Counted from the stretch's first letter, positions 3,211 through 15,012 are shown. The stretch: 32,000 bases of DNA from Anabaena subtropica FACHB-260 (GCF_014697105.1 NZ_JACJRF010000012.1:98930-130929), one strand, 5' to 3'. The notes: a model not told the origin generated them from the letters alone. Made by a program: numbers and translations.

Positions 3211-4248
3211 ATGAATAAACCAAACAGTAATAAGCTCTGGGAGCAATTCAATAATACCAAATTGATTCGCTATATATTAATCTTTGCATTCGCTTGGGGA
3301 ATTGTCCAATTTTTAAGCTATTTTGCCACGGTTATTATCATTTTTATTTTTGCTGGGATTCTAGCGTTTTTACTCAGTTATCCAGTGGATTGGTCTGAGC
3401 GTTTTTTCCCACACAGCATTGCCGTTATCTTAGTTTTTCTCACCAGTCTCCTCATTGTATTAGGGTTGATAGCTACGCTAGGCTTTGCAATTTTATCTCA
3501 AGCCCAAGAGTTAGTTAATCAAGCACCACAGGTTTTAGATTCTGCCATTTCCTTATTAGAAAGGTTACAAAATATTTTAGCAAATTTTAACTTTAAAGTC
3601 GATTTTCAAACAATAGAAGAAGAAATTAGGAGTCAGGCTTTAGCTTTTATTGGTACTGGCTTGGTAACTATTCAAGGCTTATTATTTAATTTTATAGATT
3701 TAGTTTTGATAGCAGTTGTAGCTTTCTTTATGTTGTTAGATGGTAGAAGAGTATGGAATTTTATTTTAAAACTTTTTCCAGAAAATATTCGCCCTAAAAT
3801 AACAGCAGCAATTCAACAAAATTTCTTAGGTTTCTTTTGGGGACGCTTGTTATTATCATTATTTTTTGGCGCTTCATTATTTATTATATTCATTATTTTG
3901 CAATTACCTTTTGCTTTATTCTTAGCAGCGATCGCTGGTGTATTTGACTTAATTCCTGGCATCGGAGCCACAATCGGAATTACTCTAGTTTCTCTAATTG
4001 TTTTACCTCAAGGAATTTGGGTGAGTATACAAGTTTTAATTGGTTGTATCATCCTCCAGCAAGTAGAAGAAAACCTACTCATGCCAAGAATTATGCAAGG
4101 CTCAATCAATATGAATCCAGTTTTTATGTTCTTTGCTTTATTAGTAGGAGCAAAGGTTGCAGGCTTGGTGGGAGTCTTTTTGTCTATTCCTTTAGCAGGA
4201 GTTTTAATCAGCTTGTTTGAGATTGAAGATATGCAAGGAGGAGGGTAG
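3211..4248 (+). CDS. AI-2E family transporter (PerM/UPF0118-type permease)
   Basis: 345-aa ORF, polytopic and hydrophobic. The characteristic C-terminal region is GVFDLIPGIGATIG...QQVEENLLMPRIMQ...NPVFMFFALLVGAKVAGLVGVFLSIPLAG. Confidence 0.85.
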   Translation: MNKPNSNKLWEQFNNTKLIRYILIFAFAWGIVQFLSYFATVIIIFIFAGILAFLLSYPVDWSERFFPHSIAVILVFLTSLLIVLGLIATLGFAILSQAQELVNQAPQVLDSAISLLERLQNILANFNFKVDFQTIEEEIRSQALAFIGTGLVTIQGLLFNFIDLVLIAVVAFFMLLDGRRVWNFILKLFPENIRPKITAAIQQNFLGFFWGRLLLSLFFGASLFIIFIILQLPFALFLAAIAGVFDLIPGIGATIGITLVSLIVLPQGIWVSIQVLIGCIILQQVEENLLMPRIMQGSINMNPVFMFFALLVGAKVAGLVGVFLSIPLAGVLISLFEIEDMQGGG

Positions 4249-4425: not shown

Positions 4426-5136
4426 ATGACATCCATCATCCAACTATCCCCTCTGACTAACAGCAATCATAAGTTTCCGAAACAGTTAATCTTAACTCTG
4501 GCTTTAACCAGTCTGTTATCTTCTGGATTCGGTTTGGCTAGTAGTAATACTGCTACAGCAGCTCCTACAACAAACTCCATAGAAATATCTCAAATCTCCC
4601 AGAATCGCTTACCCGGATACATCGGTAGAGCAGTATTAAATGATGCTTCCAGACGTTATGGAGTAGAAATTACTAATTTAAGTATCACTCAAACTACACC
4701 AAAAACTTTTGGTAATCCCTGTGAGTTCAACTTTGGGGAAGTTTGCACCAAGGAATATCGACCAGTCCAAGGTTGGGAAGTGGTTGTGCGGGGACAAAAT
4801 CAATCTTGGACTTATCATGTTAATCAATCTGGGACGGAAGTTGTCCTAGATCCTAAAACTAATGTTAGTGGAAATAGCCAATTACCTAGAGCGATCGCTC
4901 ATAAAATTTTGAATGAAACTGCTAGACGTTCTCGTGTACCCAGACGAGAACTACGAATAAACAACGTCACAAGCAGAACCTTTGGGAATCCCTGTGAGTT
5001 CAACTTTGGGGAAATTTGCACCAAGGAATATCGACCAGTCCAAGGTTGGGAAGTGGTTGTGGGGGGGCGGAATCAATCTTGGACTTATCATGTTAATCAA
5101 TCCAATTCGCAATTCATTTTAGATCCAAAAAACTAA
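4426..5136 (+). CDS. Secreted protein of unknown function built from two ~91-aa repeats, each with a C-x9-C pair
   Basis: 236-aa ORF with a signal-peptide-like N-terminus (LILTLALTSLLSSGFGLASSNTATA). The module TFGNPCEFNFGE[VI]CTKEYRPVQGWEVVV.G.NQSWTYHVNQS occurs twice. A GGAGG lies 7 nt upstream of the ATG. Confidence 0.75.
   Translation: MTSIIQLSPLTNSNHKFPKQLILTLALTSLLSSGFGLASSNTATAAPTTNSIEISQISQNRLPGYIGRAVLNDASRRYGVEITNLSITQTTPKTFGNPCEFNFGEVCTKEYRPVQGWEVVVRGQNQSWTYHVNQSGTEVVLDPKTNVSGNSQLPRAIAHKILNETARRSRVPRRELRINNVTSRTFGNPCEFNFGEICTKEYRPVQGWEVVVGGRNQSWTYHVNQSNSQFILDPKN
4708..5102 (+). repeat. Intragenic direct repeat: 122-nt copies at 4708-4829 and 4981-5102, offset 273 nt (91 codons)
   Basis: Hand alignment gives 6 mismatches in 122 nt. 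The first halves of the two protein repeats are much more divergent. Confidence 0.85.
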
Positions 5137-5282
5137 TCCAAATATTAGAGGATTTTTGTAAATCCACATCTCGACACAGCTATTTACGCCAATCTTATTG
5201 ATCAAATCTATCCACCCATTACTTTTATTGCGATAATTCCTAAGGGAGACAAGCTCTCTACTGGTTCGTCAAAGGGGGACAG

Positions 5283-6848
5283 ATGACTATCAAGCGGTTG
5301 GTTTTATTTTTTGTATTAACGCCGATAGCAGCTTTGTTAGCAGCTTCGTCTTTATTTGGTAGTTTGCAAGAACCACAGTTTCAGAGTCGCTTGGAACTGT
5401 ACCAAACCAATATTGCACTGCAAGCACAAGCTTGGAAACCAGACGACAGTAACGACGATGATAGTTCTCAAGTAATCCAAGGGGCGATACTTGGGGAAAA
5501 GCCTCTGGAAAATGCCGCTAAGGAATATCAAAAAACCCGTCAATCAGTGCAAACGAATTTGACGAAAATTCAAAACCAACTTGAACAACTGCGTTCTCCA
5601 TCCCAAGTTAACGATGTTCCTCCCGCCACTAATACCTCTCGCAATGACAAAGAAAAGCAGTTGCAGCAGTCTCTCCAACAACTGCAAAAATTCTCGGCTG
5701 AATTAGACTTAAAGCTAGGAATTTTACAAGCAAAACAAGGACAGACAAAAACAGCCATCAAAACTTGGAGCGAATTACAAAAAGGTGACACTTCAGCACT
5801 AAATACAGAAACTGAGCAAACGGCGGCTGTCTTGAGTGGACTTTGGAGTGAACCACCACGACTCTTCCCCAATGCTCAACAGTTAATTCAAAAGAATTTA
5901 GAAGGTTGGTTTCGTTCTACAGCTTTGATTGAGTTGTATCAACTCCAGCAACGCCAAGACGCTTTAACAGAAGTTCAATCCGCACAACAAGAGGCGGCTA
6001 GTCAAGCTGTGTTTAAATTAGCTGTGATTGGTACTGTCCCCAGCTTGGCAGCTTTGGTGGGGATGATCCTATTAATTTTCTTAGTTGCTCAACGCTTGCT
6101 CAAGGGAAAAGAAGCCTTGTTAGGGCAAAATGCTGACATAGCTTGGTCAACACCTTGGGATGCAGAAACAATTCTCTTGGTTTTTGTCGTTGGCTTTTTC
6201 TTCATGGGACAGATTTTTGTTCCTTCTTTGTTGTTACTCCTCCCCATACCTCGTCCCATAGTTGATGTACGACTCCAGGCTGTTTCTGTTTTAATAAGTT
6301 ACTTATTAGTAGCATCCGGTGCGCTGTCAGTCCTGTATTTTTCGATTAAACGCTTTTTCCCCTTACCTCAATTTTGGTTTCGCTTCCGGTTGCGGGATAA
6401 TTGGTTTTTGTGGGGACTAGGCGGTTATTGTGCAGCTTTGCCGATAGTTGTGATTGTGTCTTTGATTAATCAACAGTTATGGCAAGGACAAGGTGGTAGT
6501 AACCCTCTATTGCAATTAGCACTGGAAAGCCAAGACTTTACTGCATTGGGCATATTTTATGTGACAGCTGCGATCGCCGCCCCTTTATTTGAAGAAATCC
6601 TGTTTCGCGGTTTTTTATTACCGTCTTTGACTCGTTATTTGCCAGTATGGGGATCAATTGTCGCTAGTGCTGTGTTGTTTGCTGTCGCTCACCTCAGTTT
6701 GTCGGAAATTCTCCCACTCACCGCTTTAGGCATCGTTTTAGGTGTAGTATATACGCGATCGCGTAACCTCCTGGCTCCTATACTCCTTCATAGCCTCTGG
6801 AATAGTGGCACACTACTGAGCTTATTTCTTTTAGGTAGTAGCAACTGA
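5283..6848 (+). CDS. CPBP-family (CAAX/Abi-type) intramembrane metalloprotease with a long Q-rich N-terminal extension
   Basis: 521-aa ORF. CPBP motifs are APLFEEILFRGFLLPSL (EExxxR), FAVAHL and ILLHSLWNSG. There are several TM helices in the C-terminal half. Confidence 0.85.
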   Translation: MTIKRLVLFFVLTPIAALLAASSLFGSLQEPQFQSRLELYQTNIALQAQAWKPDDSNDDDSSQVIQGAILGEKPLENAAKEYQKTRQSVQTNLTKIQNQLEQLRSPSQVNDVPPATNTSRNDKEKQLQQSLQQLQKFSAELDLKLGILQAKQGQTKTAIKTWSELQKGDTSALNTETEQTAAVLSGLWSEPPRLFPNAQQLIQKNLEGWFRSTALIELYQLQQRQDALTEVQSAQQEAASQAVFKLAVIGTVPSLAALVGMILLIFLVAQRLLKGKEALLGQNADIAWSTPWDAETILLVFVVGFFFMGQIFVPSLLLLLPIPRPIVDVRLQAVSVLISYLLVASGALSVLYFSIKRFFPLPQFWFRFRLRDNWFLWGLGGYCAALPIVVIVSLINQQLWQGQGGSNPLLQLALESQDFTALGIFYVTAAIAAPLFEEILFRGFLLPSLTRYLPVWGSIVASAVLFAVAHLSLSEILPLTALGIVLGVVYTRSRNLLAPILLHSLWNSGTLLSLFLLGSSN

Positions 6849-8276: not shown

Positions 8277-10706
8277 ATGCAACTTGTCCCAAAAACTCAG
8301 CTTGACCCAGAACCAACCCCCACATTAGAGAAAATTATTCTGGATGTCGGGGGGATGAAGTGTGCCGGGTGTGTAAAGGCAGTAGAGCGACAACTCACCC
8401 AAAATTCAGGTGTTAAGAGTGCCTGCGTGAATCTAGCTACAGAGGTGGCGGTGGTAGAGTCGGAAGTTGGCGCAGTAGACCCAGATATACTGGCACAACG
8501 ATTGACAGCAGCAGGTTTTCCCACTCAACCACGAAAAGCTAGAGATAAGCCTGGTGAATCAACACGAGAAGACCCAGCAGCAAGGCAGCACCAACAAATG
8601 CAGGAGGCATTCCGGCAGTTAATTATTGCTGGGGTGTTGCTATTCTTTTCAGGAATTGGGCATTTCGGCAATATTGGCGGCTCAATCTTCCCCCTCTTAA
8701 ATAACATCTGGTTTCACTTTGGACTAGCAACAATAGCTTTACTAATTCCTGGTCGCCCGATTTTGGTTGATGGGTGGCTTGGTTGGCGGCGTCATGCACC
8801 CAACATGAACACCTTAGTAGGATTGGGAACACTCACAGCCTATACGGCTAGTGTGGTGGCGCTACTATTTCCCCAAATGGGTTGGGAGTGCTTCTTTGAT
8901 GAACCAGTGATGATGTTGGGCTTTATTCTGTTAGGTCGGACATTAGAGCAACAAGCCAGAGGTAAGGCGGCGGCGGCATTTAGGCAATTGCTGGCACTGC
9001 AACCACAAGTAGCACGATTGATTGCTAATCCAGACCCAGAAAAGTTGGGCATGGGAGCAAATACTGTGGAAATCCCGGCTGAACAGGTAAAGGTGGGAGA
9101 ATGGTTGCAAGTGTTGCCAGGAGACAAAATCCCCGTTGATGGTGAGGTACGTTTTGGACAAACAACGGTGGATGAGTCGATGTTGACTGGGGAAGCTGTG
9201 CCGGTGATCAAGCAACCAGGAGACATTTTAACAGCAGGGACGATTAACCAATCAGGGGCGATCGCTCTCCAAGCCACCCGTACAGGTAATGATACTACCC
9301 TAGCTCACATCGTCGCCTTGGTAGAAGCAGCCCAAACTCGCAAAGCCCCAATCCAAAAATTAGCCGATACAGTCGCCGGTTACTTTACCTACGGCATATT
9401 AACGGCATCTGTATTAACATTCATCTTCTGGTACTTCTTCGGCACTAATATCTGGACTGATATCAATATATCTAGTGGTGGGATGGAAATGATGAACCAC
9501 GCCGCCCATACTACCAACAATTCCCCACTCCTAGTTAGTTTAAAACTAGCGATCGCTGTTATGGTCGTCGCTTGTCCCTGTGCCTTGGGACTAGCCACAC
9601 CCACAGCGATTATTGTCGGCACAGGTATAGGTGCAGAAAGGGGTTTATTAATCAAAGGTGGTGATGTTTTAGAAAAAGTACATCAACTAGACACTATAGT
9701 TTTTGATAAAACCGGCACTCTCACCACTGGTCATCCTGTTGTTACTGATTGTGTTGTATTTGATGAACTAGGAAAAAACAGAGGCGCAGAGGTGCAGAGG
9801 ACAGAGGAAAAAAATCTTACTCCCCACTCCCTCATACAACTAGCAGCCGCAGTAGAAAGCGGCACACACCACCCCTTAGCCAAGGCAATCCAGCAAGCAG
9901 CCCAAAAACAACAGTTATCGATTCCAGAAGCTACAGACTTCCACACTGAACCAGGAATGGGGGTTTCTGCGGTGGTAGATGGTCAAACTGTGCTATTGGG
10001 TAACTGGGATTGGTTAAAGTGGCATGGAATTAATTTGAGTGAAACGGCTCAACAGGAAGCGCAAAAGCTCGCCACTCAAGGTAAAACTGTCGTTGGTGTA
10101 GCAGTTGGGGAGACTTTAGCCGGATTGATTGGTGTGCAAGATACTACCAGACCGGATGCCCAAACTACGGTAGACAAATTGCGCCAGATGGGTTTGCGAG
10201 TAATGCTGTTGAGTGGCGATCGCCCAGAAGCTGCTCACGCCATAGCGCAAGAGCTAGGTATAAATAGTACTGATGTCATAGCTGGTGTTCCTCCCGCCAA
10301 AAAAGCCGCATTTATTCAAGAACTACAAGCAAAATCTGCCGCTAAAGTGGCAATGGTTGGCGATGGTATCAACGATGCTCCCGCTTTATCCCAAGCAGAT
10401 GTAGGCATTGCCTTACACTCAGGGACAGATGTAGCGATGGAAACAGCACAGATTGTCTTAATGCGCGATCGCATTAGCGACGTTGTGGAATCAATTCATC
10501 TGAGTCGCGCCACCTTCAACAAAATCCGCCAAAATCTATTTTGGGCTTTCGCATACAACACCGTTGGTATCCCTTTAGCAGCAGGTGTGTTGCTTCCCAA
10601 CTGGGGTTTTGTTCTCAGTCCTTCGGGTGCGGCTGCACTGATGGCATTTAGTTCAGTTAGTGTGGTGACGAACTCTCTGTTATTGCGTCGGTTAGCTCAT
10701 CGGTAG
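8277..10706 (+). CDS. Copper-translocating P1B-type ATPase (CtaA/CopA-like)
   Basis: 809-aa ORF. Motifs: N-terminal HMA domain GMKCAGC, TGE (MLTGEAVP), CPC in the TM helix (VACPCALGLATP), DKTGTLT phosphorylation site, HP (GTHHPLAKA) and GDGINDAP hinge. Confidence 0.92.
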   Translation: MQLVPKTQLDPEPTPTLEKIILDVGGMKCAGCVKAVERQLTQNSGVKSACVNLATEVAVVESEVGAVDPDILAQRLTAAGFPTQPRKARDKPGESTREDPAARQHQQMQEAFRQLIIAGVLLFFSGIGHFGNIGGSIFPLLNNIWFHFGLATIALLIPGRPILVDGWLGWRRHAPNMNTLVGLGTLTAYTASVVALLFPQMGWECFFDEPVMMLGFILLGRTLEQQARGKAAAAFRQLLALQPQVARLIANPDPEKLGMGANTVEIPAEQVKVGEWLQVLPGDKIPVDGEVRFGQTTVDESMLTGEAVPVIKQPGDILTAGTINQSGAIALQATRTGNDTTLAHIVALVEAAQTRKAPIQKLADTVAGYFTYGILTASVLTFIFWYFFGTNIWTDINISSGGMEMMNHAAHTTNNSPLLVSLKLAIAVMVVACPCALGLATPTAIIVGTGIGAERGLLIKGGDVLEKVHQLDTIVFDKTGTLTTGHPVVTDCVVFDELGKNRGAEVQRTEEKNLTPHSLIQLAAAVESGTHHPLAKAIQQAAQKQQLSIPEATDFHTEPGMGVSAVVDGQTVLLGNWDWLKWHGINLSETAQQEAQKLATQGKTVVGVAVGETLAGLIGVQDTTRPDAQTTVDKLRQMGLRVMLLSGDRPEAAHAIAQELGINSTDVIAGVPPAKKAAFIQELQAKSAAKVAMVGDGINDAPALSQADVGIALHSGTDVAMETAQIVLMRDRISDVVESIHLSRATFNKIRQNLFWAFAYNTVGIPLAAGVLLPNWGFVLSPSGAAALMAFSSVSVVTNSLLLRRLAHR

Positions 10707-10720
10707 CAAAATTAAGCACC

Positions 10721-10835
10721 CCTCTCCAAACCTCTCCCCGACGCGGGGAGAGGCTTCAAAGTGTAATTATTTAGTACTAATAAGTTACAAATTGTTAGCC
10801 CCTTCCCTACAAGGGAAGGGGTTGGGGTTAGGTTC
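10721..10835. repeat. Two GC-rich hairpins of a dispersed repeat family; the first may terminate the ATPase transcript
   Basis: Hairpin 1: CCTCTCCCCG-acg-CGGGGAGAGG at 10731-10753. Hairpin 2: CCCCTTCCC-tacaa-GGGAAGGGG at 10799-10821. A related copy lies at 23461-23545 (CCCCTTCCCTACAAGGGAAG..., ...TTCAGAGTGTA). Confidence 0.6.
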
Positions 10836-10905
10836 CGCACTCGACGTTACTCAATACGCTAAACTGAGGTACATAAGTATAATCTCGTATTATTATTCTT
10901 AACTT

Positions 10906-11367
10906 ATGGAACCAGTAACCTTGACTGCGGCGGCTGTTGCAACCCTAGTTTTTTCAGAAGCCTTGAAGGAAGGGGGAAAAGCTTTAGGTAAAGGCGTTTC
11001 AGAACAAATTGCTCAACTATTGAGTGCGATTCGGCAGAAATTCCAAGCGGCGGGAATGGAGGGATTACTGAAAAGAGCCGAAGAAAATCCTACAGAAAAG
11101 AATCAAAGCAAATTCCAGGATGAATTGGAAACTCAAATGGAGGAAGACACAGCTTTTGCTAATCGGCTGCAAGAACTGATGACGCAGCTAAAAGCTAATG
11201 AAACAATTAATCAAATAGTCCTCAAGGGAGTCAGTGTACAGGGTAAGGCGAAGGTAGGCGATATAGATTTGACAGCTACAAGAGAGGGTGCAGTGAATCA
11301 AGAAGCGGTAGTTGATTCTCAATTTGGTGATGATATTGACCTCGGTAATATCAACATGAAGGCTTAG
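10906..11367 (+). CDS. Small helical protein of unknown function, candidate effector/adaptor partner of the downstream NB-ARC NTPase
   Basis: 153-aa ORF. Its stop lies 4 nt before the next ATG, which suggests an operon. It has a hydrophobic N-terminal helix (EPVTLTAAAVATLVFSEAL), a charged helical middle and a G/V/D/Q-rich C-terminal ~50 aa with an internal pseudo-repeat (KVGDIDL / FGDDIDLG). Confidence 0.7.
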   Translation: MEPVTLTAAAVATLVFSEALKEGGKALGKGVSEQIAQLLSAIRQKFQAAGMEGLLKRAEENPTEKNQSKFQDELETQMEEDTAFANRLQELMTQLKANETINQIVLKGVSVQGKAKVGDIDLTATREGAVNQEAVVDSQFGDDIDLGNINMKA

Positions 11368-11371
11368 GATA

Positions 11372-13462
11372 ATGAGCGAAAATCGCGCTAATCCTGAGCA
11401 AATACGCCAGAATGCCTTTGAGAATGTTCAAGCCCGTGATATAAAAATTGGAGTCTTTAACCAGTCTATAAATCTGGGCAAAACTTCCAAAGCCATTGGT
11501 ATTCCGCAAAATTTACCCCTGAGTGGGGTGGTGAAATTTGTGGGACGTGATGAAGAACTGGAAGAACTCGACAAACTATTGCAGGAAAATAACCAAGTAG
11601 CCATTGCAGCTATTTTGGGAATGGGTGGACTGGGTAAAACAGAACTCGCCTTGCAATATGCCATGACTCAGCGCGAAAACTACCAAGGTGGACTGTGCTG
11701 GTTACAGGCGAAAGTTGAGGATTTTGGCGTTCAATTGGTGCGGTTTGCCAGAACTCAGCTTGATTTAAAGCCACCAGAAGAGTTTGATTTACCTACACAA
11801 GTACAATACTGCTGGCGGAATTGGCGTGAGGGTAATGTGCTGCTGGTGGTGGATGATGTTACAGATTACCAGCAAATCAAACCTTACCTACAGGGCGCAT
11901 CTTCCAGTTTTAAAGTGTTGATGACTACCCGCCAAAGGTTGGGTGTAGGCATCAAGCAATTATCTTTAGATGTATTACAACCAGATGCAGCGTTGGAGTT
12001 GTTACGGTCTTTGCTGGCAGAAACACCAGAGCGAATTGAGAGAGAATTAGATGTAGCCAATCAATTGTGCGAATGGCTGGGGTATTTGCCTTTGGGTTTA
12101 GAGTTGGTGGGGCGATATCTGGCGCGAAAACCGGATTTGTCCCTATCGAAAATGATGGGGCGATTAAAGGACAAGCGACTAGAACAACCTGCAACTGTCA
12201 ACCCAGAAGCAGATATGACAGCACAACGGGGAATAAAAGCCGCCTTTGAGTTGAGTTGGCAGGAATTAGCAGAGAATGATAAGTTATTAGGCTGTGTACT
12301 CAGTTTATTTGCAGCCGCACCCATACCCTGGAACTTAGTAGAACAGTGCTTACCAGAGAAAGATGAGGATGAGTTAGAGGAAATTCGGGATGATAAATTA
12401 TTGAATCTGCATTTACTCCAGCGCAAAGGTGAAGGAATCTATCAACTACATCCCTTACTGCGGGAATTTTTCCAATCTAAGTTTACAGGTTTAGAGCAAG
12501 CAGAGGAATTTAGGCGATCGCTTTCTCAGGTAATGGTAGCAGTAGCCCAAAAAATTCCTAAAAATCCCACCCTTGAAGAAATCAACGCTGTTTCCGTTAC
12601 CATACCTCATCTAGCTGAAGTAGCGAATCATCTCATTGAGTATATTAGCAACGATAATTTAGTTTGGCCGTTTGTTGGAAATGCTTTGTTTTATAATGCT
12701 CAAGGCTTGTATGCCCAAACTGCACATTGGTATGAAAAGTGTAGAGAAATCAGTAAACAGCGATTAGCAGAAGAAAACCGTAATTTTGCTTCCATTCTCA
12801 ACGACTTAGCATTAATCTACAAATTTCAAGCTAGATACGATGAAGTCGAAATTTTGTACTTAAAAAGTTTGAAACTCAGGCAGTACTTGTTTGGTGAGGA
12901 AAATACTCATGTGGCGCAAAGTCTCAACAACTTAGCTGAACTCTACCGTTGCCAAGGCAGATACGGCGAAGCAAAACCGCTTCATATAAGAGCTTTGGAA
13001 ATGAGACAACGCTTACTCGGAATTGAACATGAAGACGTTGCTACTAGCCTTAACAATCTAGCTTTACTCTATAGTTCACAAAAATTTTACAAAGATGCTG
13101 AATCACTTTTTCTAAAAGCTTTGAAAATTAGGCAACGCCTCCAGGGTCAAAAACATCCAGATGTTGCTACTGTCCTAAATAATTTGGCTGTACTCTACCA
13201 ATCACAAAAACATTATGTGAAAGCAGAAACTTATCATTTAGCAGCTTTGGAGATGAGGCAAGACCTTCTTCCACAAAACCATCCAGATGTGGCCAGTAGC
13301 TACAATAATTTAGCGTATCTCTATCTTTCTCAAAGCAGATACAAAGAAGCTGAACCCCTATATAAAAAGGCTTTAGATATTTGTGAACTAAGGTTTGGAA
13401 TTAATCATCCCCATACTGTTATGGTGCGTGAGAATTTAGCCAATTTACGCGATCATCTCTAA
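11372..13462 (+). CDS. NB-ARC (STAND) NTPase with C-terminal kinesin-light-chain-type TPR repeats; NLR-like
   Basis: 696-aa ORF. Motifs: Walker A GMGGLGKT (aa 83-90), Walker B LLVVDDV, RNBS-B-like MTTRQR and GLPL-like GYLPLGLELVG. About six TPR_10/12-type repeats follow (LNNLAELYRCQGRYGEAKPLHIRALEMRQRLLG...). Only ~55 aa precede the NTPase domain. Confidence 0.9.
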   Translation: MSENRANPEQIRQNAFENVQARDIKIGVFNQSINLGKTSKAIGIPQNLPLSGVVKFVGRDEELEELDKLLQENNQVAIAAILGMGGLGKTELALQYAMTQRENYQGGLCWLQAKVEDFGVQLVRFARTQLDLKPPEEFDLPTQVQYCWRNWREGNVLLVVDDVTDYQQIKPYLQGASSSFKVLMTTRQRLGVGIKQLSLDVLQPDAALELLRSLLAETPERIERELDVANQLCEWLGYLPLGLELVGRYLARKPDLSLSKMMGRLKDKRLEQPATVNPEADMTAQRGIKAAFELSWQELAENDKLLGCVLSLFAAAPIPWNLVEQCLPEKDEDELEEIRDDKLLNLHLLQRKGEGIYQLHPLLREFFQSKFTGLEQAEEFRRSLSQVMVAVAQKIPKNPTLEEINAVSVTIPHLAEVANHLIEYISNDNLVWPFVGNALFYNAQGLYAQTAHWYEKCREISKQRLAEENRNFASILNDLALIYKFQARYDEVEILYLKSLKLRQYLFGEENTHVAQSLNNLAELYRCQGRYGEAKPLHIRALEMRQRLLGIEHEDVATSLNNLALLYSSQKFYKDAESLFLKALKIRQRLQGQKHPDVATVLNNLAVLYQSQKHYVKAETYHLAALEMRQDLLPQNHPDVASSYNNLAYLYLSQSRYKEAEPLYKKALDICELRFGINHPHTVMVRENLANLRDHL

Positions 13463-13518
13463 TGAGAACACGAAAATTTACCTTCCCAACCTCATCACTC
13501 TAGCTTTTATCTCCAAGT

Positions 13519-13728
13519 TTCCTGTTTTGAACACAAAGTTTCATGTTCAGAACCCGAACTTTCGTGTTGCAAACGAGAAAGTTCCTGTTTCCAACTAAAG
13601 TATTCTTGTTTTCAGTGAGAACGTTCTTGTTCTAAACGAGAATATTTCTGTTTCAAACGAGAACCTTCCTGTTTCCAGTGAGAATGTTCCTGTTTCAAAC
13701 GAGAATCTTCTAGTTCTGAAGTGGAATG
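13519..13728. repeat. Ten perfectly phased 21-bp tandem repeats, consensus TTCCTGTTTCAAACGAGAAnn
   Basis: Hand-parsed units start at 13519, 13540, 13561, 13582, 13603, 13624, 13645, 13666, 13687 and 13708. A degenerate 11th unit lies at 13729. There are stops in every frame over the array. Confidence 0.9.
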
Positions 13729-13887
13729 ATGGTGTTATGAAGGTGTAGGGAGAGCATCATCAAGTAAATTCACCGGCGATATGTGGGGTATGATGGGTTT
13801 GTTTTGAGAGTGGCGATCGCTTTGATATGATGATCTTATGAGAATATGCTATGTCTCATTATTATTGAAGCTTGAGGTACTAAAAAC

Positions 13888-14130
13888 ATGGCAACACTTC
13901 AACTTAATATTGAGCAAGTTATATCATTGGTAAAGCAATTAGCAGTTACAGAACAGCGTATGATATTACAAGCCATCAAAGCAGAACAAGATGCTTGGTG
14001 GCAAAGTAGACTTGATGACGGAGAATTACAGATGCGCTCTTTGAGTGCGTCACGCGGGCTTAATTGGGATATTATGACCGAACAAGAGCGAGAAGACTTT
14101 ATAGATGATTTGATGCACGAATCTAAATGA
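13888..14130 (+). CDS. Putative antitoxin partner of the PIN toxin (unknown family)
   Basis: 80-aa acidic ORF. Its TGA overlaps the ATG of the next gene (ATGA overlap at 14127-14130), a typical toxin-antitoxin layout. Confidence 0.65.
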   Translation: MATLQLNIEQVISLVKQLAVTEQRMILQAIKAEQDAWWQSRLDDGELQMRSLSASRGLNWDIMTEQEREDFIDDLMHESK

Positions 14131-14534
14131 TCTCTTATATAGTTGTTTTTGATACAAATACGCTCTTTTCAGGGTTAGGCTGGCGAGGTAGTCCTTATAG
14201 TTGTTTAGAACTTGCAAGAAACGGACAGATTGAATCTGTAACTTGTCGAGAGATTTTATTGGAGTTACGGGAAAAGTTACAAACAAAGCAAAATCGCTCT
14301 CCAACAGATGCAGCTATTGATATTGAGCAAATTCTCACCTTTTCACGCTTGGTAGAAATTTCCAATAGTCTGCAAGTTGTAGTTGATGATCCAGATGACA
14401 ATATGGTGATTGAGTGTGCAATTGTGGGAAAAGCAACCCATATTATTACAGGTGATAAGCATCTATTATCATTTAACAAATATCAAGACATCCATATTCT
14501 CAAAGCAGGGGCCTTTTTGGAATTACTTACTTAA
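14127..14534 (+). CDS. PIN-domain toxin (PIN_3 / TIGR00305-type toxin-antitoxin toxin component)
   Basis: 135-aa ORF with the acidic residues in the expected contexts: VVFDTNTL, DDPDDNMVIECA and IITGDKHLL. Confidence 0.85.
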   Translation: MISYIVVFDTNTLFSGLGWRGSPYSCLELARNGQIESVTCREILLELREKLQTKQNRSPTDAAIDIEQILTFSRLVEISNSLQVVVDDPDDNMVIECAIVGKATHIITGDKHLLSFNKYQDIHILKAGAFLELLT

Positions 14535-14550
14535 TCGTCAACCACGCCGC

Positions 14551-14733
14551 TTAAAGTAGAGATTGACGGATATCTTCCGGCTCTAAATCAGGATATTCTT
14601 CTAAAATCTCCCCTATAGGTTTGCCATTAGCTACCAAATTTACGACAAGAGAAACCGGAATCCGCATCCCCCGAATGCAAGCTTGTCCACCCATAATGTT
14701 ACGGTTAAAGCTAATTCTGTCCAGACCTAACAT
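14551..14733 (-). CDS. DUF433 domain protein (short, antitoxin-like), with no partner gene
   Basis: 60-aa ORF with the DUF433 core GGQACIRGMRIPVSLVVNLVANGKPIGEILEEYPDLEPEDIRQSL. It ends 16 nt from the convergent PIN gene. Confidence 0.7.
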   Translation of the reverse strand: MLGLDRISFNRNIMGGQACIRGMRIPVSLVVNLVANGKPIGEILEEYPDLEPEDIRQSLL

Positions 14734-15012
14734 AAAATTTTCTCTCTCAAATCTCTTTTATTATGATGGGCGTGTTGTTTGTTTTGGAGCATTGACTACA
14801 AATCGCATCTATACCCCTGTTCAAAGTATAAATCTAAGTGCGCTGGCGTTCTGCCCACTGGAGGCGATGGGCTACGCCCCACCGTAGGCGATCGCTGATA
14901 AGTGTCATTGTGCAGAGTATAATTAGCTTGCTCCAACGAAGGCGATACCCACGGTAAGCTAGGCTAACGCTGGTGTGGAAAAAATCAGCTACGATAAATC
15001 AAAGCAACTTGG

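Follow-up and report, generated by a model that had tools for sequence, protein, structure and literature searches.

A Bell/BASS4 and NB-ARC-TPR gene pair of Anabaena subtropica as a candidate amyloid-signalling module

Bacterial gene pairs in which a small Bell-domain protein and an adjacent NOD-like receptor (NLR) carry the same short motif, known as BASS, have been described by Dyrka et al. (2020, bioRxiv 10.1101/2020.01.06.895854). As defined there, BASS motifs are about 25 amino acids (aa) long, have beta propensity and are rich in Q, N, G, V and I and poor in K, P and L, while the genes that carry them lie within 5 kb of each other, usually collinear and at most 10 bp apart. Only BASS1 and BASS3 were tested in that preprint: in Podospora the NLR-side motif of both converted the Bell-side motif to the prion state, and the BASS1 fibrils were cross-beta. 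Here we describe a pair of this class in a 32,000-nucleotide (nt) stretch of Anabaena subtropica FACHB-260 (GCF_014697105.1, NZ_JACJRF010000012.1:98930-130929; henceforth the window), at positions 10906-13462, to which a first-pass annotation made from the sequence alone had drawn attention. We report its gene architecture, the identity of its domains, BASS4 motifs on both proteins, an adjacency conserved in related loci and a partial co-variation of the two motifs. The two genes probably make up a co-translated Bell/BASS4 plus NB-ARC-TPR module that acts by amyloid templating and membrane attack.

The module consists of two open reading frames (ORFs) of 153 and 696 aa, with the coordinates and the 4-nt gap originally noted. 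Their junction reads ATG AAG GCT TAG / GATA / ATG AGC, i.e. the stop and the next start are 4 nt apart, with AGGA immediately 5' of the second ATG. There is no upstream alternative start in the frame of the larger gene, and since this frame opens just 12 nt before its ATG the N-terminus of the NLR is well defined. A TATAAT (putative -10) is found 22 nt ahead of the ATG of the small gene; a scan for consensus promoters and terminators gave no full -35/-10 site before the module, and the number of sites was no higher than in shuffled sequences. The features of the module are as follows.

10873..10905, plus strand: short conserved 5' leader with a perfect TATAAT at 10878-10883 (blastn against 35 related loci)
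10906..11367, plus strand: effector gene, 153 aa, helical domain of Bell type and then two BASS4 repeats (ORF call)
10906..11199, plus strand: predicted Bell-type domain, small protein aa 1-98 (AlphaFold2/DSSP, alignment)
11203..11268, plus strand: BASS4 repeat 1, small protein aa 100-121, TINQIVLKGVSVQGKAKVGDID (published-BASS4 profile)
11284..11358, plus strand: BASS4 repeat 2, small protein aa 127-151, EGAVNQEAVVDSQFGDDIDLGNINM (published-BASS4 profile)
11372..13462, plus strand: NLR-like STAND NTPase gene, 696 aa, N-terminal BASS4, NB-ARC and TPR (ORF, Pfam, NCBIfam)
11399..11464, plus strand: single NLR BASS4 motif, aa 10-31, QIRQNAFENVQARDIKIGVFNQ, with the profile core at aa 10-27 (profile)
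11549..12181, plus strand: NB-ARC nucleotide-binding domain, NLR aa 60-270 (PF00931)
12781..13447, plus strand: putative TPR sensor array, NLR about aa 470-692, 42-aa TPR_10/TPR_12 units (Pfam)

Being on the same strand and 4 nt apart, the two genes fall within the published adjacency limits. A lack of synteny in related genomes had been named beforehand as a finding that would speak against such a module. We compared 35 genomic loci, and the tight adjacency is kept: the stop of the small gene and the start of its partner are 2-5 nt apart in 24 of the 26 related pairs.

The evidence that the two proteins share a motif comes from family profiles. We used a BASS4 profile made from 12 published cya_02 rows (Dyrka et al. 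2020, Suppl. Table 2), from which the ortholog pair of the window had been excluded. It matched repeat 2 of the small-protein tail (aa 127-151) with 21.9-24.4 bits (0/5000 shuffles), repeat 1 (aa 100-121) with 10.6-13.1 bits, and the first 60 aa of the NLR with 16.9 bits at aa 10-27 (0/5000 shuffles), the latter being the sole match within the 696-aa protein. Among all window ORFs of at least 100 aa these two termini were the only ones that scored, and in a six-frame scan of ca. 214,000 residues (36 sequences, the window plus all loci) matches of at least 9 bits were confined to small-protein tails or the N-termini of the next ORF. Each side of the pair could also be recovered from the other. 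A profile built from Bell-side BASS4 motifs only gave 6.0 bits on the NLR N-terminus (p = 0.0008). Cross-side profiles from the collected loci, excluding the window and its close relatives, gave 16.7 bits for partner N-termini on the small protein (aa 92-124; 15.5 bits and 0/3000 shuffles with the tail alone) and 9.2 bits for tails of other types on NLR aa 10-31 (p = 0.0003).

Composition agrees with these scores. The fraction of Q, N, G, V and I is 0.47 in the tail and 0.59 in NLR aa 10-36, against 0.26 elsewhere, while that of K, P and L is 0.13 and 0.07 (tail and NLR motif) against 0.22-0.26, and strands are predicted in the tail, as is characteristic of BASS motifs. Conserved positions include LGN in the small protein (G145/N146) and IG in the NLR (G27). 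Nearly all complete loci have a partner N-terminus of the form Q-x-[IA]-[FL]-x-N-V-Q-[AV]-x(1-2)-[ND]-[IL]-x-[VIT]-G-[ND]-[IF]-x-Q. Moreover, the Bell/NLR motif pairs of the 2020 Suppl. Table 2 (10.1101/2020.01.06.895854) include this small-protein family in their BASS4 block, where the Nostoc pair OYD94771.1/OYD94772.1 is listed as Bell/BASS4 with the sub-motifs cya_02 and nlr_13. The printed segment of OYD94771.1 (aa 96-122) is identical at 24 of 27 positions to KANETINQIVLKGVSVQGKAKVGDIDL of the window and even has the same residue numbers. On their profile scores, the small-protein tail and the NLR N-terminus can both be assigned to the BASS4 motif family, and the Bell/BASS-type identity initially suggested is supported by the scores on both proteins, the listed ortholog and the conserved adjacency.

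That the two copies of the motif vary together across orthologous pairs is an expectation which the first-pass annotation had proposed to test. For nine clade representatives the in-register score of tail repeats against partner N-termini averaged 23.3, compared with -2.4 +/- 6.9 for shuffled N-termini. With repeat 2, cognate pairs scored better than pairs drawn at random (p = 0.0007); with repeat 1 the difference was not significant (p = 0.27), values that have to be read with the caveat that representatives and motif cores were picked by hand and that the sequences are mutually related. The expectation thus held for one repeat, at the level of clades. In four loci (L023, L025, L027 and L028) both tail and partner have a one-residue insertion together with E/F substitutions (…EIGGDVKFSGNLTQ and …EFGGNFNFVGDLNQ, respectively).

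The small protein belongs to a family of which we collected 71 homologues, all of them cyanobacterial. Its members start with M-E-P followed by a hydrophobic helix; in the alignment E2 is invariant and P3 is present in at least 90% of the sequences. In the window this helix 1, which the first-pass annotation had also noted as hydrophobic, is MEPVTLTAAAVATLVF, and it is the sole hydrophobic segment of the protein (Kyte-Doolittle maximum of 1.73 for the 15 aa at 6-20, at most 0.65 elsewhere). An AlphaFold2 (AF2) model based on a 31-sequence alignment, with an overall predicted local distance difference test (pLDDT) of 73.7, places helices at aa 4-15, 18-21, 29-48, 52-60, 64-80 and 82-98, i.e. 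hydrophobic helix 1, followed by a helical turn and by four helices of greater length, with pLDDT of 82-92 for aa 31-90 and 57-72 for aa 1-30. After the helices one strand pattern occurs twice, identical in both repeats (about aa 103-123 and 132-152), and the model can therefore be described as a bundle of ca. 100 aa around helix 1 plus a two-rung beta unit. Two rungs in the small protein and one in the NLR is the layout that had been proposed, and both the BASS4 profile and the predicted strands reproduce it.

An acidic residue together with an N-terminal hydrophobic helix has been described as a hallmark that Bell, Hell, HeLo, MLKL and RPW8 domains have in common, and the same region has been named 'MEPIS' in Babybell and Avast2 (Ibarlosa et al. 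2024, bioRxiv 10.1101/2024.11.07.622273). The small protein has such a helix with an acidic residue at position 2/3 and a predicted all-alpha domain of ca. 100 aa, in line with the four helices that cup helix 1 in Bell domains. Searching 1.84 billion cluster representatives with aa 1-100 only, we retrieved 152 relatives, mostly 120-160 aa long, and 90 of 119 began with M-x(0-2)-[ED]-[PLATI]. BASS4 tails were found on 51 of 150, whereas the others ended in different recurrent tails, among them a BASS5 tail on P0198 (13.0 bits, 0/3000 shuffles). Conversely, P0048, P0067 and P0068 combine a divergent N-domain with a tail of the window type and have an NB-ARC partner 4 nt downstream. Such modularity of N-domain and tail is the defining trait of Bell/BASS proteins. 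By homology to an ortholog in the published Bell/BASS table and by its modular tails it qualifies, at the sequence level, as a Bell-type protein.

The 696-aa partner was assigned from its domains. Its NB-ARC domain scores 58.1 bits against PF00931 (E = 1e-15; gathering cut-off 23.5), and the motifs reported at first reading are all at the residues given for them, namely Walker A GMGGLGKT at aa 83-90 (with K89), Walker B LLVVDDV at 157-163, TTR at 185-187 and GYLPLGL at 237-243. TPR repeats, likewise significant in Pfam, extend up to about aa 690 (TPR_10, E = 1.5e-55 in five stretches; TPR_12, E = 3.4e-49). NCBIfam returned partial, below-cut-off matches to NB-ARC-TPR proteins, e.g. FxSxx_TPR and AfsR. 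With an NB-ARC domain above the gathering score and a C-terminal repeat array, the protein is an NLR-like STAND NTPase on both counts.

The reading with the best support follows the model published for this class. How such a module might work can be sketched by analogy with HET-S/NWD2 of fungi, with BASS1 and BASS3 and with Bab/Agp of Escherichia coli, from which its amyloid formation, templating, membrane attack and biological role would all be carried over. The TPR array would sense a cue, which may be phage-derived, another non-self signal or a damage signal, and the NB-ARC domain would then oligomerise in a nucleotide-dependent manner. The oligomer would gather several N-terminal BASS4 segments (aa 10-31) into a cross-beta fold, which in turn would template the repeats of the small protein (aa 100-121 and 127-151) into an amyloid resembling a beta-solenoid. 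Once refolded, the tail would free the buried helix 1 from the Bell bundle, and the freed helix would attack the membrane and kill the cell. The role may be either phage defence or, in a filamentous organism, developmental or allorecognition death.

A number of results weigh against the templating module and are considered here with the alternatives on which they bear. BLASTP, run up to E = 100, could not align the small-protein tail with the NLR N-terminus, and Smith-Waterman scores were no better than those of shuffles (p = 0.26 with the complete tail, 0.58 with repeat 1, 0.21 with repeat 2); the motif relationship is significant at the profile level only. The first-pass annotation was right that a C-terminal/N-terminal motif is shared, and the peptides it quoted from the small protein do sit at aa 108-122 and 134-147, but its hand alignment of SVQGKAKVG with NVQARDIKIG and of FGDDIDLG with FNQSINLG was out of register. 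The latter is precisely the best Smith-Waterman alignment, at chance level, and this register was dropped; the true one sets NLR aa 10-31 against tail aa 100-121 and 127-151. Scans of the small protein with Pfam, NCBIfam and PADLOC returned nothing above the cut-offs and no defence-library match, and PADLOC recognised in the NLR only a generic TPR match and no Avs or bNACHT model. The tail is modelled by AF2 with only moderate confidence (pLDDT 56-72). A Foldseek search of the AF2 Bell model against the PDB yielded no match at E < 1 (best E = 1.6, designed helical bundles only), and comparing PDB chains with a sequence profile made from the family brought up only chance matches to designed proteins; likeness to the solved cell-death helical domains (Babybell, HeLo, the four-helix bundle of MLKL) was not seen in either search. 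This weakens the Bell claim but is not fatal to it, because the topologies of Bell domains vary widely (Ibarlosa et al. 2024, bioRxiv 10.1101/2024.11.07.622273).

Taken at face value, the missing pairwise similarity would suit two unrelated neighbours that resemble each other by chance, a helical protein, e.g. a GvpT/GvpP-like gas-vesicle accessory, beside an orphan STAND regulator. There is indeed a weak GvpT/GvpP match (19.9 bits, E = 8.5e-4), but its score is far under the cut-off (80 bits) and gvp genes are absent from the window, and we rejected that identity. Chance would also leave both significant profile tests, the confinement of the motif to two positions in all loci, the 2-5 nt adjacency in 24/26 loci and the co-variation of repeat 2 to coincidence. 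On account of the profile, co-variation and motif-position tests this alternative is refuted as far as computation goes, and we hold it to be extremely improbable.

The window's NLR matches its own small protein weakly. In register, the NLR motif is identical to repeat 2 at 7/22 positions (32%) and to repeat 1 at 5/22 (23%), which is under the 43-56% of pairs shown to cross-seed (Dyrka et al. 2020, bioRxiv 10.1101/2020.01.06.895854), yet comparable to what the listed BASS4 pairs have, namely 6-10 identical positions. In the co-variation test the cognate of the window ranked merely 5-7 of 9, and the tail profile of its own clade (clade A) did not score significantly on its N-terminus (p = 0.27), and tight like-with-like co-evolution inside this clade was accordingly rejected. 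By the scores of the co-variation test, NLRs with a motif of QNVQVGGNLTTG type, such as those of L004 and L010, would seed the window's tail better than its own NLR. The NLR motif is of a distinct sub-type, …AFENVQARDIKIGVFNQ, one residue shorter and less like its own tail than in the listed pairs of QNVQVGGNLTTG type; neither this QARDIKIG sub-type on the NLR side nor its signature NVQAR is in the 2020 table. Judged by sequence, the window has one of the more poorly matched pairs. It could accordingly be a decaying or decoupled copy, in which the Bell gene is intact and the NLR motif has drifted beyond templating its partner, the more so as related loci have decayed (a frameshift in L003, a deletion fusion in L014, truncations in L030 and L031). 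Both window ORFs are intact, however, with canonical Walker A and B, and the identities of published BASS4 pairs are comparable. The same type of N-terminus is kept in L001, L002, L005, L006 and L008, in both Nodularia and Nostoc, which argues for selection. We therefore regard decay as quite unlikely.

The low in-register identity would equally suit an ordinary stoichiometric interaction of beta strands with no self-propagating amyloid, in which the NLR N-terminus would, for example, dock on the tail and keep the small protein inactive or recruit it one-to-one. AF2 packs both tail repeats together within the monomer, so a beta unit accepting one more strand is conceivable. Nor did our literature search find any BASS4 experiments, fibril data included. 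What makes a merely stoichiometric contact rather unlikely in our view is that the two-plus-one layout, the composition and the length of ca. 22 residues match motifs which have formed fibrils and prions when tested, and that the tails are swapped as modules among Bell domains, as expected of a self-contained templating unit. The statement of the first-pass annotation that no such system had been tested in cyanobacteria is true inside the organism, where we found no tested Bell/NLR pair in the literature, but the prion and fibril behaviour of the BASS3 pair of Nostoc punctiforme was tested in a heterologous host (bioRxiv 10.1101/2020.01.06.895854).

The related loci display a considerable turnover of partners. 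Where the partner is an NLR its length varies between 696 and 1215 aa, set by the differing number of TPR repeats. A three-gene variant occurs in L015, L017, L020, L022 and L026 (locus coordinates ~4440-6240; ~540-2310 in L022), in which the Bell/BASS4 gene is followed by an NTPase-less protein of ca. 170 aa with an N-terminal BASS4 (e.g. QKQIQQNALENVSVGGNLSIGQLQQ) and then by a protein of ca. 420 aa with two predicted transmembrane (TM) segments. This architecture would escape the 2020 screen, which covered only NB-ARC/NACHT neighbours. In L023, L025, L027 and L028 (partner starts ~4460-4480) the partner is a non-NLR protein of ca. 880 aa with an N-terminal BASS4-like motif, weak HEAT-repeat matches only, a C-terminal hydrophobic segment and possibly a degenerate P-loop (…LVLEGSSEVNKDS…), while in L013 and L016 it is a BASS4-TM-TPR protein, again not an NLR. 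Nostoc sp. CCY 9925 has two paralogous Bell/BASS4-NLR modules (L008 and L012) with similar tails, whose NLRs are 1215 and 747 aa long and have motifs of the QAHDITVG and QVGSNLTTG types, respectively, raising the question of cross-talk between modules in one genome. As to degenerate copies, the NLR is frameshifted in L003 (4491-6725), an in-frame deletion has joined Bell aa 1-95 with the NLR's last TPR in L014 (4001-4435; also P0200), and in L030 and L031 the small gene is truncated after ca. 50-60 aa. The Bell-type domain also occurs in longer proteins: at the N-terminus of P0127 (682 aa) and P0126 (458 aa), ahead of an internal BASS4-like segment in P0101 (387 aa), after a stretch that is TIR-like by eye in P0120 (MLVFLSYRRADS…), and between a stretch that is hydrolase-like by eye (…HSMGG…) and a BASS4 tail in P0142.

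As regards its genomic surroundings, homology to related modules begins abruptly at ~10873, about 30 nt before the ATG (blastn alignments start at 10860-10905). Nodularia loci are 82-86% identical inside the module, yet do not share its upstream flank, and the same is true for all 35 loci; with no upstream flank in common, the module occupies different sites in different genomes. Between the stop of a P-type ATPase gene (10706) and the module there are two GC-rich hairpin repeats at 10730-10835 (CCTCTCCCCGACGCGGGGAGAGG and CCCCTTCCCTACAAGGGAAGGGG), which presumably resemble dispersed cyanobacterial repeats and could be the boundary of the insertion or a terminator for transcription of the ATPase gene. 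On the other side, 53 nt past the NLR stop, begins an array of about ten tandem 21-nt copies (13515-13728) of the imperfect palindrome TTCnnGTTTsAAACnnGAA, whose spacing of two helical turns suggests an array of binding sites for a dimeric DNA-binding protein. The segment 13319-13743 recurs at 75-80% identity downstream of the NLR in Nostoc L009-L011 and in the remnant L014, so the array travels with the 3' end of the module. When 10600-15000 was scanned with Rfam, no family came close to its gathering score. Two further genes follow.

14127..14534: PIN_3 gene (E = 6.9e-20)
14551-14733, minus strand: DUF433 gene, on the strand opposite to the module

An 80-aa ORF overlaps the PIN_3 gene by 4 nt, the two (13888-14534) being a likely toxin-antitoxin pair. 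In L032 (7311-7751) and L034 (71-523), too, the module is flanked by PIN genes, and upstream of the module in L004 there is a segment (3551-3771) with 86% identity to the DUF433 region (14537-14758); this may be a recurrent association or simply follow from toxin-antitoxin genes being abundant in Nostocales. Housekeeping genes make up the remainder of the window (AI-2E transporter, CAAX protease, P-type ATPase, FHA, rhomboid, Ser/Thr kinase-TPR, aldehyde dehydrogenase and glycosyltransferases). The locus is an accessory insert of ca. 4 kb (~10.87-14.76 kb) and no defence island; a large island was rejected because the genes upstream of 10.87 kb and beyond ~14.8 kb are housekeeping ones. Of the accessory or defence-islet context first proposed, the PIN_3 gene and the tandem array downstream do exist, but the accessory stretch is confined to those ca. 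4 kb and the evidence for an islet is thin.

One may go further, though at long odds, and see Bell/BASS4 as a plug rewired to many sensors, the drift of the NLR motif as tuned templating and the palindromic array as a regulatory element. From their sequences, the partners may extend beyond NLRs to the TM-TPR protein, the HEAT-like protein of ca. 880 aa and the ca. 170-aa protein with its two-TM companion. Drift of the NLR motif away from its own tail type could provide tuned, high-threshold or heterotypic templating instead of like-with-like, and the 21-nt array could have a regulatory function in these modules that has gone unrecognised. The class, the motif family and the small-protein ortholog were all published in 2020, and the module adds one member. 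The interpretation of the first-pass annotation is therefore supported while its novelty was overrated, the class having been catalogued in filamentous cyanobacteria already. Still, the raw sequence, read without tools, was enough to identify a real module of the amyloid-signalling NLR class. It is compact (2.6 kb), its motif boundaries are exact and its register is the correct one, so that fibril, toxicity and cyanophage assays on it would be reasonable, and since its NLR motif matches its own tail weakly the pair is useful for testing how much identity templating needs.

Compared with other known systems, the all-in-one NLRs (Avast2/Avs and bNACHT) have the same STAND sensor logic and the same N-terminal helix signature ('MEPIS'), but their effector is fused to the NTPase, whereas in the window it is a separate polypeptide linked by a short motif. 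With the fungal HET-S/NWD2 pair the module has in common the adjacency of NLR and effector, two pseudo-repeats against one (the layout of the HRAM motifs), a hydrophobic helix at the N-terminus with an acidic residue ahead of it and the proposed templating logic. This is a likeness of layout, with no claim of sequence kinship, and the pore-forming HeLo domain has ca. 220 aa against ca. 100 for Bell, NWD2 is built of NACHT and WD40 instead of NB-ARC and TPR, and the host is a fungus and not a bacterium. Bab/Agp (BASS11) of E. coli is an abortive-infection system that works via amyloid signalling, with helix 1 essential (Ibarlosa et al. 2024, bioRxiv 10.1101/2024.11.07.622273), and the only bacterial system of such logic with a demonstrated phage phenotype that our literature search found (10.1101/2024.11.07.622273). 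It too has a small helical executioner with an 'MEP…' helix and a C-terminal amyloid motif that recurs at the N-terminus of the adjacent sensor. Agp, however, is built as TPR-GreA/B-C-PIN without a NOD NTPase, the motif is BASS11, and Babybell has ca. 80 aa and a single motif. In Pfam the window partner has an NB-ARC domain and neither GreA/B-C nor PIN; by analogy the module would work like Bab/Agp, of which it is no member. With the Nostocaceae Bell/BASS4 and NB-ARC-TPR pairs (Dyrka et al. 2020) the agreement covers the small-protein family, the two Bell-side repeats, the NB-ARC-TPR partner, the motif family on both proteins and the collinear arrangement with a spacing of a few nt; what sets the window apart from them is the …AFENVQARDIKIGVFNQ sub-type of its NLR, one residue shorter and with an NVQAR signature outside their table.

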